Assembly: GCF_006345805.1 (NCBI RefSeq)
Contig: NC_043011.1
Span: forward strand, 15,512,464 to 15,576,463
Direction: 5' to 3'
Length of the DNA stretch: 64,000 nt
Source: Octopus sinensis
Taxonomy: Eukaryota
Part shown: in pieces, positions 4,990 through 58,220 of the stretch
How the letters are laid out: each line of letters begins with the position of its first letter
Position numbering within the stretch: position 1 is the stretch's first letter
Notes under the pieces: generated by a model
What the model was told of the DNA's origin: nothing
Databases searched by the model: none
What the model saw: the letters and a program-made list of their open reading frames with translations, nothing else
Position numbers and translations under genes: made by a program

Positions 4990-5366
4990 TAATAATTGTA
5001 ATAATAATACTGATAAAATATATATATGTGCGTGTGTGTGCGTATATGTGTCTGCGTATATGTGTGTGCGTGTATATATATATATAAATTTATCAAAATA
5101 AAAATATGATGCCAAGGATTTAGCACGTTGTGCGCGGCTGAAGAAGGCCACAGAAACACATTATGCATTGTTATAAATCCGTCTAATAAAGGCCCGAAAC
5201 ATATGTACCGCTGATTCCTTGGCATCGTGTTTTTATTTTGATTAATTTACTCCACCACCTACACCACCAAACGGTATATACAGGTGCTTACAATTATCAA
5301 GTACTCACCCTGAATTTGTATACCCAACTCACCTATATATATATATATGTATGTATGTATGTATAT

Positions 5367-5492
5367 ATGTGTCTGTGTTATACTTATGTATATATATATA
5401 AGTTCAGCAAAAATTTAGATTCAAATGAATATGGTACTTAATTTAGATGCACCAGAATTTTGTTTGGTGTTATCCATAAAAATCCATGGGGT

Positions 5493-5541
<49 letters not shown>

Positions 5542-5668
5542 CACCCCATGGATTTTTATGGATAACACCAAACAAAATTCTGGTGCATCTAAATTAAGTA
5601 CCATATTCATTTGAATCTAAATTTTTGCTGAACTTATATATATATACATAAGTATAACACAGACACAT
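5367..5668. repeat. Near-perfect inverted repeat (about 128-bp arms) centred on (TA)n
   Basis: 5367-5495 is the reverse complement of 5541-5668. Confidence 0.93.
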
Positions 5669-5822
5669 ACATTTATCTAAATATATTAATATGTATATAT
5701 ATTATTTTTATTTAAAAAGTTTTTTATATCTAGTTTCAGCACACGAGCTGTAGCCATGCTTGGGCACCGGCATTTATATATATATATACATACATACATA
5801 CATACATACATACAGACATACA

Positions 5823-5856
<34 letters not shown>

Positions 5857-5860
<4 letters not shown>

Positions 5861-6696
5861 TCAATATAGGGTGCCAAAAAATTTTGTAGAATTTTTTTGC
5901 CACCAGCGGCCTAGTGGGAAAAATTTAAATAGTCATAGACCATTTTTAAGTTCAACATCACAATCAAGGAACGGCCATAATAGGCCATTCACCCACTAGA
6001 AATAACAGCCAAAGCTTCAACCGCAAAATAACATCAATTCCGTAAACCAGGAGAAAATTAAAAAACATTTACCCTGTAATTTCTTATACGATGCACCGTA
6101 AATGTTTTTTAATTTTCTCCTGGTTTACAGAATTGATGTTATTTTGCGGTTGAAGCTTTGGCTGTTATTTCTAGTGGGTGAATGGCCTATTATGGCCGTT
6201 CCTTGATTGTGATGTTGAACTTAAAAATGGTCTATGACTATTTAAATTTTTCCCACTAGGCCGCTGGTGGCAAAAAAATTCTACAAAATTTTTTGCCACC
6301 CTATATTGATTAATTATGAATTTTCTGGTTAATTCCGCAATGGAATCGGCGGCTTATACTTATTTGCTGCCGATAAATTTGGCGCGAGTGCGATGATTTG
6401 AAAATTTTAGGTCAGATATTGCCGAGGCAGGGACAGAAATGCCTCGTGAAAATATCTGTTCCGATCTGGCTATTTCTTACTGACGATTCTAAGGGCCTAT
6501 GGAAGATTGGCTTGATTTAATTTAATCAGGTTAGTTTACCATTAAACAGTAGATGAAACGGTGCATCGTATAAGAAATTACAGGGTAAATGTTTTTTAAT
6601 TTTCTCCTGGTTTACGGAATTGATGTTATTTTGCGGTTGAAGCTTTGGCTGTTATTTCTAGTGGGTGAATGGCCTATTATGGCCGTTCCTTGATTG

Positions 6697-6701
<5 letters not shown>
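5857..6701 (+). mobile_element. Non-autonomous HHR-carrying element (PLE pLTR/retrozyme-like): inverted copy plus partial tandem, period about 487 bp
   Basis: 5857-6072 is inverted relative to 6098-6313; 6098-6213 repeats directly at 6585-6701; HHR lies inside; (TA)n on both flanks. Confidence 0.8.
6472..6578 (+). ncRNA. Type I hammerhead ribozyme with extended stem II
   Basis: Stem I ATTTCTTA (6472-6479) pairs with TAAGAAAT (6571-6578); core CTGACGA (6480-6486) and GAAA (6555); stem II TCTA/TAGA; stem III ACG/CGT around GTGCAT; GTA cleavage triplet at 6568-6570. Confidence 0.8.
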
Positions 6702-6741
<40 letters not shown>

Positions 6742-7128
6742 ATCATCTGAGATCGAGATCGTGTGCTGAAACAAACACAGTTGCAGCGTGGAAGGTGCAT
6801 ATATGTATATATATATATGTTTATATATAGGTAGATAAATAGATAGATAAATCGATAGATAGAAAGAGAAATAGATGTATAGATAGATAAATAGATAGAT
6901 TCACATCAACATTTATACTGAAATTTAAATGTTGAAGAGAATCTGACGGTTTTGCGTGTTTTTCAATGGTTTATAAACACCTTCCACGCTGCAACTCTAT
7001 TTGTTTCCGCACGCGATTTCAGATCAAGTCACATTCTACGCAGCTACATCTCCGTAATATACATATACATACACACACACATATATATATATATATATAA
7101 TACCTGAACATCATCTCCAAAACTTCTA

Positions 7129-9084: not shown

Positions 9085-9293
9085 TGATGGCCGTCCACTC
9101 GTGACCGAGGAAGACCATTGCCTACCTTCAGGAACATTGTGCGCTCTGTGGCTAATGAGCACTGCTCTTGACAAGCATATATATATATATAACGGGAAGC
9201 TTTATGAAAATAGACAAAAGACGAAGGCAGGTGGAAAACAAACAAACAATTGTATTAGTATGGCGCTCAGGAAATATAAATAAAACAAGTCTT

Positions 9294-11162
9294 GGACGAA
9301 AGAGAGGAAGGAATCTAGATGTTCACGGGAGAGTGAGGTGGCACCGATAATGTCGTCAATGTAACGACCATATAGTTCAGGAGTGGGACCAGTGAAATTA
9401 GAGAATATTTGGGCCTCAACATAGCCAACGAACAGGTTCGCATAGTTGGGGCCCATTCGCGTTCCCATGGCCACTCCCGAGACCTGATGGTAGAACTTGC
9501 CCGCGAACGAGAAGCAGTTCAGAGTAAGGACAAGTTCGGCCAGACGAATGAGTGTGGAGGTGTCAGGTACAGGGTTGGAGCGGAGGTCAAGAAAGTGTCG
9601 AAGGGCTTTGGATGTCCATAGTAAAAAGGATTTTGGAGGAGCCGGGAGGAAAGGAGAAAGAGTTGAAAAGCCGGAGAGCATGGTTGGTATCGTGGATGTG
9701 GGAGGGAAGAGATGCCACTAGGGGGGCAAGGACACGGTCGAGGTATTTAGAGATGAGCTCCGTGGGGCAGTTACAGGCGGAGACGATGGGGCGGCCAGGG
9801 TTGTTGGGTTTGTAGATTTTGGGGAGGAAGTAAATGGTGGGGGTACGTGGGGTTCGCACAATTAGGTTGGATGCGGTGTGGGGGAGACGGGAGGACGAGA
9901 TGAGGTCGCGGACAGTAGAGGATACCGTCTGTTGGTAGCTACGTGGGGTTAGATAGAGGCAGAGGGGAGTAGAAGGAGGTGTCATTGAGTTGGCGGAAAG
10001 CCTCGGCCCTATAGAGGTCCGCGCGCCACACTACTACAGCTCCACCCTTGTCAGCCGGTTTGATGATAATGTCAGCGCGCCGTTGGAGGGAACGAAGAGC
10101 CAAGAGCTCAGCCGGGGAGATGTTGAGGCGGCGTTGGCGCCTGGAGAAGTTGAATCGCTCCAATGCACGCTGACAAGCGCCCGCGAAAAGATCCACTGCT
10201 AGGAACTGGCCAGGGGCAGGCGTCCACGGGGATGGTCGGCGGCCCAGGCCAGTGAAGCAGTCCTCCTCGGTGGGTGTGGGTGGCGAGTCGTGGTAATGCG
10301 CACCCAACCGGACGCGGCGCACAAAGCTGTGGACATCAACCCGCGTTTGGAATTCCTTACAGGATGGAGTGAGGGGGATGAAACGCAGACCCCTACCAAG
10401 GACGGAGCGTTCAGCCGCAGAGAGGGGAAGATCGGGGGGAATGGTAACAACAGACGGAAGTGGAGAAGGGGTGGGTGGAATAGAAGAGGGAGGGGTGGTA
10501 GGTCTCGTGGGGGAGGGATGGGGAGGTGTGTGGGGGTGGTTGGGGGGGCAGTAGGGTTAGGTGTAGGTGGATGGAGCCTATCAGGGGGGAGAAGGGGTTG
10601 TAGGAGGGGCAGTGGGTTAGGTGTGGGTGGATGGAGCCTATCGGGGGGGAGGAGGGTAGAGTGGAGAGTTGGGGGTAGTGGCGTCGTCGGTAGGGTGGAA
10701 TGGAAGAGTGACTGGAGTTTACGAAGTTTAGTATCAGAAAGAAATTGATGGAAGAGGTGATTCAAATGGATAATGAAGCGTAGCGTGTTTGGGGCATAGA
10801 GAGGCGGCAGTAAGGAGAAGAATGTGGAGAAAGCAGGAGGAAGAAGGCGGTTGATGGTATGTAGTTTAGAGAGATTGGAGCGAATGGTGGCCCGCATAAG
10901 GCGGTAAGATGTGGTGCGGAGTATAGGTAAGATGGAAGAATCCGAGTGGAGAGCAGGGTGGAAGTGGAGGCGGAAACCTTTAGGGATGAGTCGGTGATGT
11001 AGGCAGCGGCTTAGGAAAGAGACATGGCTAGAGAAGTGGGTTTTTTTAAAAAGAAGTAGAGAGAGATTAACGGACGGCTGAAGGCAGTTTACGGTGAGAG
11101 GACGGAGATGATCCTTCAAACGATGATGGAGGGTGAGGAGGTAGGACCTAGGATCCGGCATG
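9294..11162 (-). pseudogene. Frameshifted, 3'-truncated PLE polyprotein (N-terminal domain plus RT; no GIY-YIG)
   Basis: MPDPRSY..FLSRCLHHRLIPKGF; IIIKPADKGGAVVVW; YFLPKIYKPNNPGRPIVSACNCPTE; TMDIQS; QVSGVAMGTRMGPNYANLFVG; RYIDD, spread over four ORFs in different frames. Confidence 0.9.
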
Positions 11163-11870
11163 ATGGGATAGCGGAAAAAAACAAACGTTCGAAAAAACAA
11201 AAAAAAACAAAAAAAAAAATTATCGTATGAAAAAAATAGATAAAAAAGGATAGCGAAAAAAAGGGGAAAAAACAAACGTTCAAAAAAAACAAAAAAATAA
11301 TAATCGTATGAAAAAACTAGATAAGTAAGCGTTAGGGGCAGAAAAGACGGGGCAAACGGAAAAGGGAAAGAAAGAAGGGAAGCAGAGAGAGGGGGAGGCA
11401 AAAAAGGGGGTGCAGGCAGAGGAAACAGAGTATGGACATCCAGAGAGGGAAGAAAGACGGAAAGGAGAACAAAAATACAGGAAACTGTGGAAAGCATGAA
11501 ATGAATGTAAAAAAGTGGTAATATATGAGAAAATAAAAATACAACAAACGGGACAAGTTCAAGGTTGAGAGTTCAAGGTTAGAAATGTGTAGACGTCGTG
11601 GTATATTTTTTAAGGATTTCACATCAATAACAAAGTCACTTTGATCCGCGAAAGAGAGGTGCAGCCAATGGTAAGTATCCAAGAGGTAAAGAAAATCCAA
11701 GGTAGAGGTAAGTGTTGATAGTGGTATTGGTAGAATATAGGATGAAAGTGAGACCACGTGAGCGCATAATATATAACGGGAAGCTTTATGAAATAGACAA
11801 AAGACGAAGGCAGGTGGAAAACAACAAACAATTGTATTAGTATGGGGCACAGGAATATAAATAAAACAAG

Positions 11871-11908
11871 TCTTTAACGTTTCGAGCCTACGCTCTTCAA
11901 CAGAAAGA
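11871..11908 (-). ncRNA. Minimal type I hammerhead ribozyme (CUGUUGA core variant) in the PLE repeat
   Basis: Minus strand TCTTT-CTGTTGA-A-GAGC GTAG GCTC-GAAAC-GTT-AAAGA; palindromic AACGTT stem III, as described for dimer-forming PLE HHRs. Confidence 0.7.
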
Positions 11909-12079
11909 TACACAGAGAGAAAAAAAAACACAGAAAGAAGGAGAGAAAAAAATGCGTGCAGTAACTAACGAATCAACATGGCGATCTGATTTCGGCAGAG
12001 GTCAAAGATCAACATGAGACGCGAGAGCGAAATTAGGGGAGATAATAGGTTGATAATAGGGTTGAATGACCAGCTCTAA

Positions 12080-28184: not shown

Positions 28185-28778
28185 AACAGCCTGGCCTTTT
28201 CTCCACCTCAACCCATTCTCCCTTCTCTCCGTCGTGCCCCTCCCCTAGCCCAAACCTAGCCTCACAAAACTGCGCGCCTTCTTTCATGGCACTACACAGC
28301 CCCAAAACAATCAGGATGACTTCTGAGCTGTCGTCCATCTAACTGGGCGCCCTCTCAGTCCGCCTTAGCAGCCTAGATTTGTTTGTGAACGCATGCAGCA
28401 ATCATAGTCAATTGCTTTCATTTTAAGAAATGATCCTGCCGTGCAAAATATCTCTCGTGCCAAATTCTCAGCCCTCCGCAACCTCCATCCTCGGGTCGCC
28501 ATCATTATCAAACTAGCTCAGAAAATTGGAGCTGTAATGGTGTGGAATGCTGACATTTATATGGAGAAAGCATTCCAACAGCTTCGTGACCGAGTTTTCT
28601 ATCACCTCCTGCCCTCCTATCGAACCCCCATCTACCAGCAGCGCGTGTCATGCACCATCCGAGACCTCATTTTTACTCGTCTTTTGCCCTTCCCACTGTT
28701 GTCACCAACCACAATGTCGAATCTCCCTACGCCTCCCCCATATATTTCCTTCCCCAAATCCATAAACCCAACCCTGGA
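28185..28778 (+). mobile_element. PLE RT N-terminal fragment related to the 9.2-11.2 kb element
   Basis: NISRAKFSALRNL..IIIKLAQKIGAVMVW..AFQQL..YQQRVS..IYFLPQIHKPNPG aligns with NISPAELLALRSL..IIIKPADKGGAVVVW..YFLPKIYKPNNPG. Confidence 0.8.
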
Positions 28779-29731
28779 TACCGGGGTGGATGGGTGGACA
28801 GTGTTCATAGCAAATACACACACAGAGACTCCCGCACACACGCACGTATGTGTGCATCTGTGTGTATGCGTGTGCATGTGTGTGTGTGTGAGTGCGTGTG
28901 TATGTGAGTGTGTGTATGTCTATGCTTGTGTGTGGGCGCGCGCACACACAGTATTCGATACCTTTCATTAATATTTATAGCAAACACCAGAATAATTACA
29001 GATGGCAAATTAGCTATAGTTGTTGGCAACCGTCAAATTTATTAATCATTTTGATTTAATTTAAACATTTAATTTCGTCTAATTTACTGTTCCACTATGA
29101 GCACTTCTGTGTTCGTGTGCGTGTGCCTTTATGAATCTGTGCGCGTGTGTTTAGTGTTTATATATATTTAAAAAAATCTTATATATGTATATAGATGTAT
29201 ATGTGCCTCAGTATGCCCACACCCTTAATGCTGAAACGTATAAAATAGTAAAAGAATGTGTTTGTGTGTGTGTGTTGATGTGTATGTATCTATATAATCA
29301 TATACATAAATACACACACGCACACACCACACAAACGTGTGGCTAACGTATCAGGTTACGTATTTTTCTCTTGTATGTGATTATATGTATATATAAAAGC
29401 ATGTATAAATGTAATAAAAAGGCTTCTGGACCTATTGGTGCATACCAAGTGTTACTCTCATTGTTTTTGCTCACCACGGGCACTTGAACATATAGAATCA
29501 ACGCATTTGTTCCATACACCCGCCCACTTTTATCGACGTTGCTCTATATAGTTAGGGTGTTAAATCCTTTACCACATTACCATGTAAGCGCATTCTAATT
29601 TTTTTGCGCTTACAGTACTTAGGTTTCACAGTCTGTTAACCATTTAAATATTACCTAAGGTCCATGCTACTGTGATGATCAGGGAAAAAAAATCAGTATT
29701 GCAATGTGATGCGGTTATTATTTACAATGCG

Positions 29732-56879: not shown

Positions 56880-58220
56880 GGTGGGTTTAGTATTTCATTT
56901 TATTGAAGATAAAATTGCTTCAGTGCCTACATTTGACTCCACGTTCATCGTATGTCTTTAATAATTTGTCTCTAGACTGTAGCAGTTCCATAAATTCTGT
57001 TATGCATAATAAGCGCAATTTATTCCGAATATTATAGGAGTGGACTTTACCTATTATACTCCAGTTAAGAATGTACTCTGTTTTTCTACATTTTAATTCC
57101 CATATATATTTACTTAAGCCTGTGGACTTACTTAAATTAGGATTTTCGAGGGTCTGGTAGTGCTGGGATATTCTTTTTTAAATTTCATTAGCTGTTGAGC
57201 CAATATAAACCTTGTTTATAATTTTATTATTATTATTGTTCTTGGATCTTACTATACATTTTAAAATTACATTATCAATATTACAATTATTACAGACTTT
57301 ACATTTAGTCTTATCCCGACATGAACATTTTTCTATATGTTGATTAAGTCTTCTATCACTATCGGTTGTATTATGGCTAGAGCTATTATTTATTATGCTA
57401 TTATAACAATTATTTAATTTCTTATTATTTATAGAGGAAATGATATTACTTACTTTTCACGATGTTGAGTATATCACTCTTATAGCTTTATTAGAAAATA
57501 TATTTGAATAACTGTTGTCCTTTTTTAAAAAAAGCATTTTTACAATTTTAAGTGTCTCCTTAATAGTATTAGTTATCATTTGTGCTCCATACAGAATAAT
57601 TAACCATATACTATCCTTTTTCTTTTTTATACTATCATTATTAGACATCATCAGTGTCAATGTTTTATTCTTAGGTGTATTATGTCCCCACATGTATAAT
57701 TTACTATTGTCCTTACTATTGATCATATTCTCATTATCAATATTACTATTAATATTGTAATCATTAATAACAATTATATTGTTTTTATCTTTATTTAATT
57801 TGTTATATTGTCTTTTATTATTATTCACATTTTTACTGTTAGAATTATTATTAGTTTTATTAGCTGTACATGTTATATTATTAATGTGTTCATAATAAGT
57901 AAAGGATTTTATATTAGAATTATAGCCTGGTTCTTTTAATGCTTTATTATAATATGAGGCATGTTTATTAAAAGAGTTATAATCTGAGGATAGCATAGAT
58001 TTTTTTGCCTATATCATCTATTAAAAATTCTTTAACTGGTCTAGGATGGTTACTTAAAGAACTAATATACTTTAAGATTTCATTCAACTTATGGAATGGA
58101 TGGAGTTTATTAGTGACTGTCTAGATAATTTATTGCATAATATTCATTTTCTATAGATATTCCTAGGGTATAACTCTTAAAGAACTTGTACATTTTCTTC
58201 TTAAGGCATTCTAATGACCT
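56880..58220 (-). pseudogene. AT-rich PLE C-terminal fragment: post-RT region plus GIY-YIG endonuclease
   Basis: LSSDYNSFNKHASYYNKALKEPGY; about 57300-57000 reads CNIDNVILKC..KVYIGST..KRISQH..STGLSKYIWELK..LNWSII..LLCITE; KCRH near 56925. Confidence 0.75.

Follow-up and report, generated by a model that had tools for sequence, protein, structure and literature searches.

The window, a 64,000-nt stretch of the Octopus sinensis genome, contains a copy of a 487-nt hammerhead retrozyme, and we consider it likely that this element is pasted into (TA)n microsatellites by a PLE RT/endonuclease that is double-primed on one RNA, probably a circle. The class is known as non-LTR retrozymes, and the family is a variant of it with a long helix II, a tail of ~104 nt and a duplicated end signal. 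The first-pass annotation of the window had offered the element as an undescribed system, a claim that falls because animal non-LTR retrozymes have already been described (PMC7229834; bioRxiv 10.64898/2026.07.22.740005). Our literature search returned no report of a cephalopod retrozyme, of a strict pairing of short and long insertion ends or of PLE twin priming, though supplements may list such families, and the words 'hammerhead' and 'ribozyme' are absent from the available text of an octopus repeat paper (PMC13282606).

The window copy consists of two arms placed back to back between two tracts of the (TA)n target microsatellite, at 5828..5857 on the left flank and 6703..6735 on the right flank (no strand assigned). 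With monomer numbering starting at the predicted cut (m1 = 6571), the inverted arm (5856..6099, - strand) contains the 12-13 nt preceding the predicted cut followed by monomer positions 1-231, and it terminates 3' at the long end, within (TA)n. The forward arm (6098..6702, + strand) contains positions 15-487 and then 1-132, and ends 3' at the short end, also in (TA)n. The two arms overlap by 2 nt at the inversion junction (6098..6099). One full 487-nt unit with 37% GC lies at 6098..6584 (+ strand). The partial direct tandem of a ~487-nt unit seen in the first-pass annotation was confirmed, as 6098-6215 is repeated at 6585-6702 over 118 nt with one mismatch and a period of 487; likewise, the upstream inverted copy begins at the equivalent of 6558/6559 and matches 6558-6702 at 100% and 6098-6314 at 99%. 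The longest stop-free stretch of the doubled unit is 47 aa on the + strand and 60 aa on the - strand, and a coding role was rejected because the unit has no long ORF (stop-free stretches of at most 60 aa).

Each of the two 3' ends follows a hairpin. The short-end signal (6180..6213, + strand) is a conserved hairpin at 6180-6201 followed by CCTTGATTG (6201-6209), with the short end near 6213 and a second copy of the signal at 6667-6702. The tail between the short and long ends occupies 6214..6317 (+ strand, ~104 nt). The long-end signal (6266..6317, + strand) is a hairpin at 6266-6300 followed by CCTATATTG (6300-6308), with the long end near 6317 and a mirror copy at 5856-5904. We infer that these two hairpin signals are candidate RT start signals. 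Two further features neighbour the copy: a 184-nt near-perfect palindrome centred on (TA)n adjoins it at 5334-5701, and at 6755-7020 a different small repeat forms a 49-nt inverted pair (86%).

The unit carries a complete type I hammerhead at 6472..6578 (+ strand), in which all the parts named in the first-pass annotation were located: helix I of 8 bp (6472-6479/6571-6578) and the core segments CUGACGA (6480-6486), GAAA (6555-6558) and GUA (6568-6570), with the predicted cut after 6570. The extended helix II (6487..6554, + strand) begins with a U.U mismatch, followed by 4 bp (UCUA/UAGA) that enclose 58 nt, an internal loop and a hairpin of ~18 bp at 6499-6542. The insert of ~58 nt reported earlier thus stands, and its inner hairpin, drawn earlier with 5 bp, is in fact the ~18-bp one. 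Helix III (6558..6569, + strand) is a near-palindromic 12-mer, as had been noted, and is predicted to pair between two units; it is the wobble version of a 12-nt palindrome that is perfect in the sister subfamilies. The fold of the window hammerhead is stable (z = -4.1), with 0 of 200 shuffles as stable. An Rfam scan at E<=1 gave no hammerhead and only microsatellite-driven matches among the 150 of 169 matches listed.

Across the family, invariance at the 14 fixed core positions reaches 97.9-100% (185-199 segments). Position N7 is free (C in 96, A in 53, T in 36), H17 is A or C depending on the subfamily, and the core CUGANGA / GAAA / UH is otherwise kept. In 19 distinct sequences, 95.7% of cells pair in the hammerhead structure, against 26-47% in slid controls. 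Helices I-III covary, as they should if the first-pass reading of the stems is right: 9 of 35 pairs are changed on both sides (4 in helix I, 3 at the helix II base, 1 in the inner hairpin and 1 in helix III), so that compensatory change backs all three helices, and helix I is open-ended as in type I. Since the 19 sequences are related and the events are not independent, these counts are inflated by shared descent, and we read the covariation as support and not as a probability. Judged from these alignments, the hammerhead is under selection in the family.

Every subfamily seen retains the long helix II, though its sequence differs, and the extension is conserved at 55-60 nt. Because position 10.1 varies (A in 128 and U in 59 of 188 segments), the U.U of the window at 10.1-11.1, where most copies have A-U, is a subfamily trait; a U.U at the helix II base is also known in natural hammerheads (PMC3088659; PMC7229834). 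The predicted occupancy of the monomeric active fold is 0.5% for the window and 3-80% for four other haplotypes. The internal loop of helix II might supply the tertiary contact between loop 1 and loop 2. Given the 55-60 nt extension, short-stem descriptors in hammerhead searches may overlook whole families. Two other loci, L146 (2584-2700, on the strand of its GIY-YIG match) and L113 (410-560), each contain a hammerhead-like motif in which helix II encloses a very long AT-rich insert; their sequences are unrelated to the 487-nt family, and hammerheads with a long helix II may thus recur as a design in the genome.

Besides the wobble form of the window, helix III takes the form of five perfect palindromes of 12 nt across the subfamilies. 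Its computed energies are -0 to -2.9 kcal/mol as a hairpin versus -15 to -19 kcal/mol as a duplex. Being weak as a hairpin and stable as a duplex, helix III suggests that the hammerhead would cleave as a dimer, which is how metazoan hammerheads have been described to cleave (PMC4209133). Only one hammerhead in the window copy is complete, and the copy is for this reason likely passive, a short product with one full hammerhead; although self-cleaved monomers had been envisaged for the family, this copy could not release one by itself.

The family is abundant and young, and the genome-wide copies and tandem arrays looked for after the first-pass annotation were found. A 20-nt core motif has 2,680 exact matches in the 2.7-Gb genome (control 0); the first 100 of these fell in 35 loci with 36 insertions, which extrapolates to ~960 insertions. 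Of 1,699 genome candidates, 40 were scored, each with an identity of 99% or more. Sister subfamilies add 425 core matches and are ~74-90% alike with units of 470-490 nt, and a tail-hairpin pattern has 4,829 genome matches (control 1). As in retrozymes generally, the unit is a noncoding tandem one with GC under 45-50% and one hammerhead per unit. The longest arrays have 14 units, and 19 of the 35 loci hold two or more hammerheads in one orientation, compared with the one in the window copy. The most diverged subfamily member seen (L238) has its own helix I/II sequence, a palindromic helix III and a GUC cut triplet, and retains the long end. At L069, the whole two-armed insertion is tandemly duplicated with its TA flank included. 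Among 11 non-TA neighbours of the family's insertions, compared for a second retrotransposon that might target the unit, no insertion point was common to them.

Eight of eight public runs, from four organisms coded A to D, had contigs covering the window unit; these contigs are assembled, and ends, strand and circularity are not readable from them. One 478-nt contig, from a run whose type is guessed as RNA, joins head to tail, and we did not count it as expression because tandem DNA yields the same junction. Over 6098-6584, two runs (X13 and X17) each have a single low-depth contig with clustered A-to-G changes at positions that are almost invariant in genomic copies, one of the contigs crossing the GAAA core. 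With the run type guessed, these clusters may be ADAR editing of paired arms.

We examined 103 insertions: 36 found with the core motif and taken in chromosome order, 27 top matches, 16 of the sister families and 24 picked by the tail hairpin, the last of which would overlook small insertions with two short ends. Eight duplicate loci, a spurious 100-nt match in L049 and the second copy of the L069 insertion were left out. Among the 68 readable two-armed insertions, 66 have one short and one long end. The short end falls at ~m112-135 (mostly 127-135) and the long end at ~m226-238, so that one arm ends ~130 nt and the other ~234 nt past the predicted cleavage site. The two rule-breakers are L018, with two short-type ends, and L027, with two long-type ends, one of them not in TA. 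Of the remaining insertions, 8 carry a tiny inverted remnant of the complementary end, 21 are one-armed and 6 were unscorable. In the core-motif set alone, the pairing holds in 20 of 21 (p = 2e-5 against independent choice). Both end types sit just 3' of a conserved hairpin plus the CCTNNATTG motif, and the arms overlap by 1-6 nt at their junction in 25 of 49 cases. No difference in length was detected between short-end arms (median 470 nt) and long-end arms (median 613 nt; n=50, p=0.32).

The family thus shows the arrangement of PLE insertions, with a partial tandem, an inverted 5'-truncated copy and a 3' tail at one end only. Inverted copies with a tail of 30-40 bp, often at one end only, are described for PLEs (PMC8557442), and a PLE protein that is predicted to be a dimer cleaves and extends both DNA strands, with two internal RT starts that bound the tail (PMC11167929). 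That the inverted arrangement is a long-read fold-back or an assembly artefact around a satellite is scarcely credible to us. Homopolymer indels are frequent in the family loci and the second palindrome (184 nt, 5334-5701) lies next door, as such an artefact might leave them; yet the arms are not mirror images, having two different fixed ends with different lengths and flanks, and both ends recur in the public-run contigs, where they pass into (TA)n at 6213-6214 and 6312-6317.

The same genome contains a young autonomous family with a 784-aa RT + GIY-YIG frame and 2,107 motif matches, which we assigned to the Neptune clade from its CxxxxCxxC linker, as defined in PMC8557442. Its copies at L113, L131 and L132 (C17, C12 and C3) have an upstream ORF, full tandems of 4.4 kb and a minimal hammerhead variant. 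The family targets (TA)n, and its short and long ends are ~31 nt apart; one short and one long end are paired in 8 of 8 scorable pairs and in L140 (9/9), with the pair L171/L172 left out as an internal pLTR. Since Neptune follows the same short-plus-long rule in (TA)n, the retrozyme carries the footprint of a local PLE. The Neptune ends lack the CCTNNATTG motif, and further GIY-YIG PLE families occur in the genome. A different PLE family, with RT and GIY-YIG and one stop, adjoins a Neptune copy at L139 (5882-7936, + strand) and has relatives at L143, at L158 and beside L032. The window itself holds a broken Neptune-type PLE at 9202-12060 (- strand) whose sequence is unrelated to the retrozyme; it has RT fragments (RVT_1 E=0.005), terminates 3' in (TA)n and carries, near 11900, a motif resembling a minimal hammerhead. 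PLE-like coding fragments with no Pfam match also occur in the window at 57457-58008 (- strand), which we take to resemble Naiad, and at 28408-28971 (+ strand).

A partner was sought with a Neptune RT query, full Neptune elements, Pfam GIY-YIG and the tail-hairpin pattern with upstream stretches. Among the PLE families sampled (150 of 10,348 and 150 of 5,029 candidates scored), none has a pLTR similar to the 487-nt unit, with no meaningful DNA similarity. A 37-nt match of 78% in L159/L170 was considered as a pLTR link and dropped, as it belongs to a distinct palindromic insertion past the end of the PLE. No contiguous RT or GIY-YIG frame was present among 150 fetched retrozyme loci, and tblastn of five PLE peptides against these 150 loci gave separate neighbouring fragments only. 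The sequences therefore support a non-autonomous family. It is very improbable, in our judgement, that the unit is instead the pLTR of an unsampled autonomous PLE and that the arrays are its 5'-truncated or locally amplified ends. The PLE architecture (inversion, one-sided tail and TA target) would suit such an origin, of 57 retrozyme families in Xenopus, 24 match repeats, nearly all of them PLEs (bioRxiv 10.64898/2026.07.22.740005), and our sampling covered a part of the PLE families of the genome. Against this, the units run head to tail at a fixed period of 470-490 nt with no ORF between them, 0 of 150 loci have a contiguous RT or GIY-YIG frame, and several subfamilies that are ~74% alike retain the ORF-free unit. 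The first-pass idea of a non-autonomous hammerhead family mobilised by a PLE is upheld by the ~960 insertions, the arrays of up to 14 units, the covarying helices, the absence of a contiguous PLE ORF in the 150 loci and the PLE footprint.

The two arms of an insertion come from one template. They differ at 71 of 11,661 shared positions (0.6%; 41 insertions), compared with 2.7% between insertions (mean of medians). Of the rare variants, 20 are common to both arms (9 insertions) and 64 are confined to one arm; in 14 arrays of at least 3 units, 12 rare variants are in all units, 9 in some and 64 in one. The one-arm and some-unit variants fit later mutation, assembly error or a mixed multimeric template. 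Of 114 arm 5' starts, 8 are found no more than 15 nt from the predicted cut, against 7.0 expected. On this ground, 5' junctions as marks of a cut linear monomer were rejected, and the start of the window's inverted arm 12 nt from the cut, which the first-pass annotation had pointed out, is a matter of chance. Because 5' starts are not enriched at the predicted cut, copying traverses the cleavage site, and the template is therefore a circle or an uncut multimer.

At L047, L056, L064 and L066, every unit carries variants seen in no other of the 53-62 sampled insertions, which requires a bottleneck of one monomer followed by amplification. Fixation of such variants across as many as 10 units of an array speaks for a circle. 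An uncut linear multimeric transcript of the source array, with the same double priming, seems to us an unlikely template; the hammerhead would then serve end formation or read-through release, and no circle would be copied. Single-haplotype arms and read-through of the cut site fit a linear multimer equally well if the source array is homogeneous, and a homogeneous source array or later local amplification could also fix variants. Moreover, four variants at L033 are common to 2 of 5 units, the autonomous Neptune likewise forms full tandems of its 4.4-kb unit, and for the Anolis PLE hammerhead cleavage is dispensable in vitro, with uncut RNA as the main substrate (PMC11167929). On the other hand, arrays of 10-14 units are present although a linear template could not make an array longer, and circles are documented for the retrozymes of coral, mussel and axolotl (PMC7229834). 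We hence retain the circle as the probable template.

The following sequence of events would account for the insertions. Arrays with two or more hammerheads would be transcribed, and neighbouring hammerheads would pair via the palindromic helix III and release 487-nt monomers, which would be ligated to circles. A PLE protein, likely of the Neptune clade and likely a dimer, would bind the two hairpin + CCTNNATTG signals ~104 nt apart and cut both (TA)n strands. As the footprint shows, the copy on one strand starts ~130 nt and that on the other ~234 nt past the cleavage site, and both pass the cleavage site for up to 14 laps with the same haplotype. The two cDNA ends would finally be joined by short microhomology, giving the back-to-back arms. 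More tentatively, we propose that a PLE dimer may grip one ribozyme-made circle at its two duplicated signals, prime both strands and copy several laps, and that the palindromic helix III may limit cutting to multimers and so protect the circle. If this is true, the insertions are direct genomic records of rolling-circle, double-primed retrotransposition, and the inverted and tailed ends of PLEs and the arrays of retrozymes are both explained.

The proposal that PLEs mobilise animal retrozymes via circular RNA is an earlier one, based on pLTR similarity and on the co-occurrence of the two. Cervera and de la Pena 2020 (PMC7229834) defined the non-LTR retrozymes, reported that those of coral, mussel and axolotl cleave and form circles, and put forward a PLE RT as the enzyme that copies circles into tandem cDNA. 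Li, Clavereau and Pollet 2026 (bioRxiv 10.64898/2026.07.22.740005) tied vertebrate retrozymes to PLE pLTRs and left the mechanism open; in their in vitro assays, 1 of 9 Xenopus retrozymes cleaved and 8 of 9 did not. The octopus family adds roughly a thousand young insertions that stem from a short, defined RNA, with a PLE footprint, a near-strict pairing of ends, one template for each insertion and two candidate start signals. Intact local Neptune ORFs and the in vitro PLE assay already published make each step directly testable. The main value lies in the footprint, which makes PLE double priming on one, probably circular, RNA open to test.

Compared with the animal non-LTR retrozymes described in PMC7229834 and the 2026 survey, the family is similar in its noncoding low-GC tandem units of a few hundred nucleotides with one type I hammerhead each, in its thousands of copies and in the presence of PLEs in the same genome, and it shares the U.U at the helix II base with axolotl HHR_Amex2 (PMC7229834). 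The units of 470-490 nt compare with ~170-400 nt in PMC7229834 and 51-972 bp in the bioRxiv survey. Helix II has an extension of 55-60 nt, whereas the described retrozymes have ~4 bp and a small loop. The insertions are back to back in (TA)n with two fixed ends, features to which the available text of the two studies gives no counterpart ('inverted' and 'microsatellite' occur 0 times in PMC7229834). Cleavage and circles are demonstrated for the retrozymes of that study, while the family here is known from its sequence.

Compared with PLEs, the family resembles Neptune (PMC8557442) and Poseidon PAc of Anolis (PMC11167929), as described there, in the partial tandem, the inverted 5'-truncated copy, the tail at one end, the microsatellite or AT-rich target, the hammerhead upstream of the 3' ends and the two internal RT starts. 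Unlike endonuclease-bearing PLEs, the retrozyme has no ORF and forms arrays of up to 14 units; its tail is ~104 nt, against 30-40 in PMC8557442 and ~31 nt in the local Neptune, and its hammerhead is full with a long helix II where that of PLEs is minimal. MRC1 of Chlamydomonas (PMC8557442) is similar in being noncoding, pLTR-forming and multicopy with head-to-tail insertions. Elements of the MRC1 type, by that account, usually have a 3' end similar to that of an autonomous family, whereas the retrozyme matches no sampled PLE. Finally, the family shares with the dimeric type I hammerheads of PMC4209133 a weak helix III with a palindromic loop and an organisation in tandem repeats; it differs from those described there in a 12-nt palindrome with five compensated versions, a helix I of 7-8 bp and an extended helix II.
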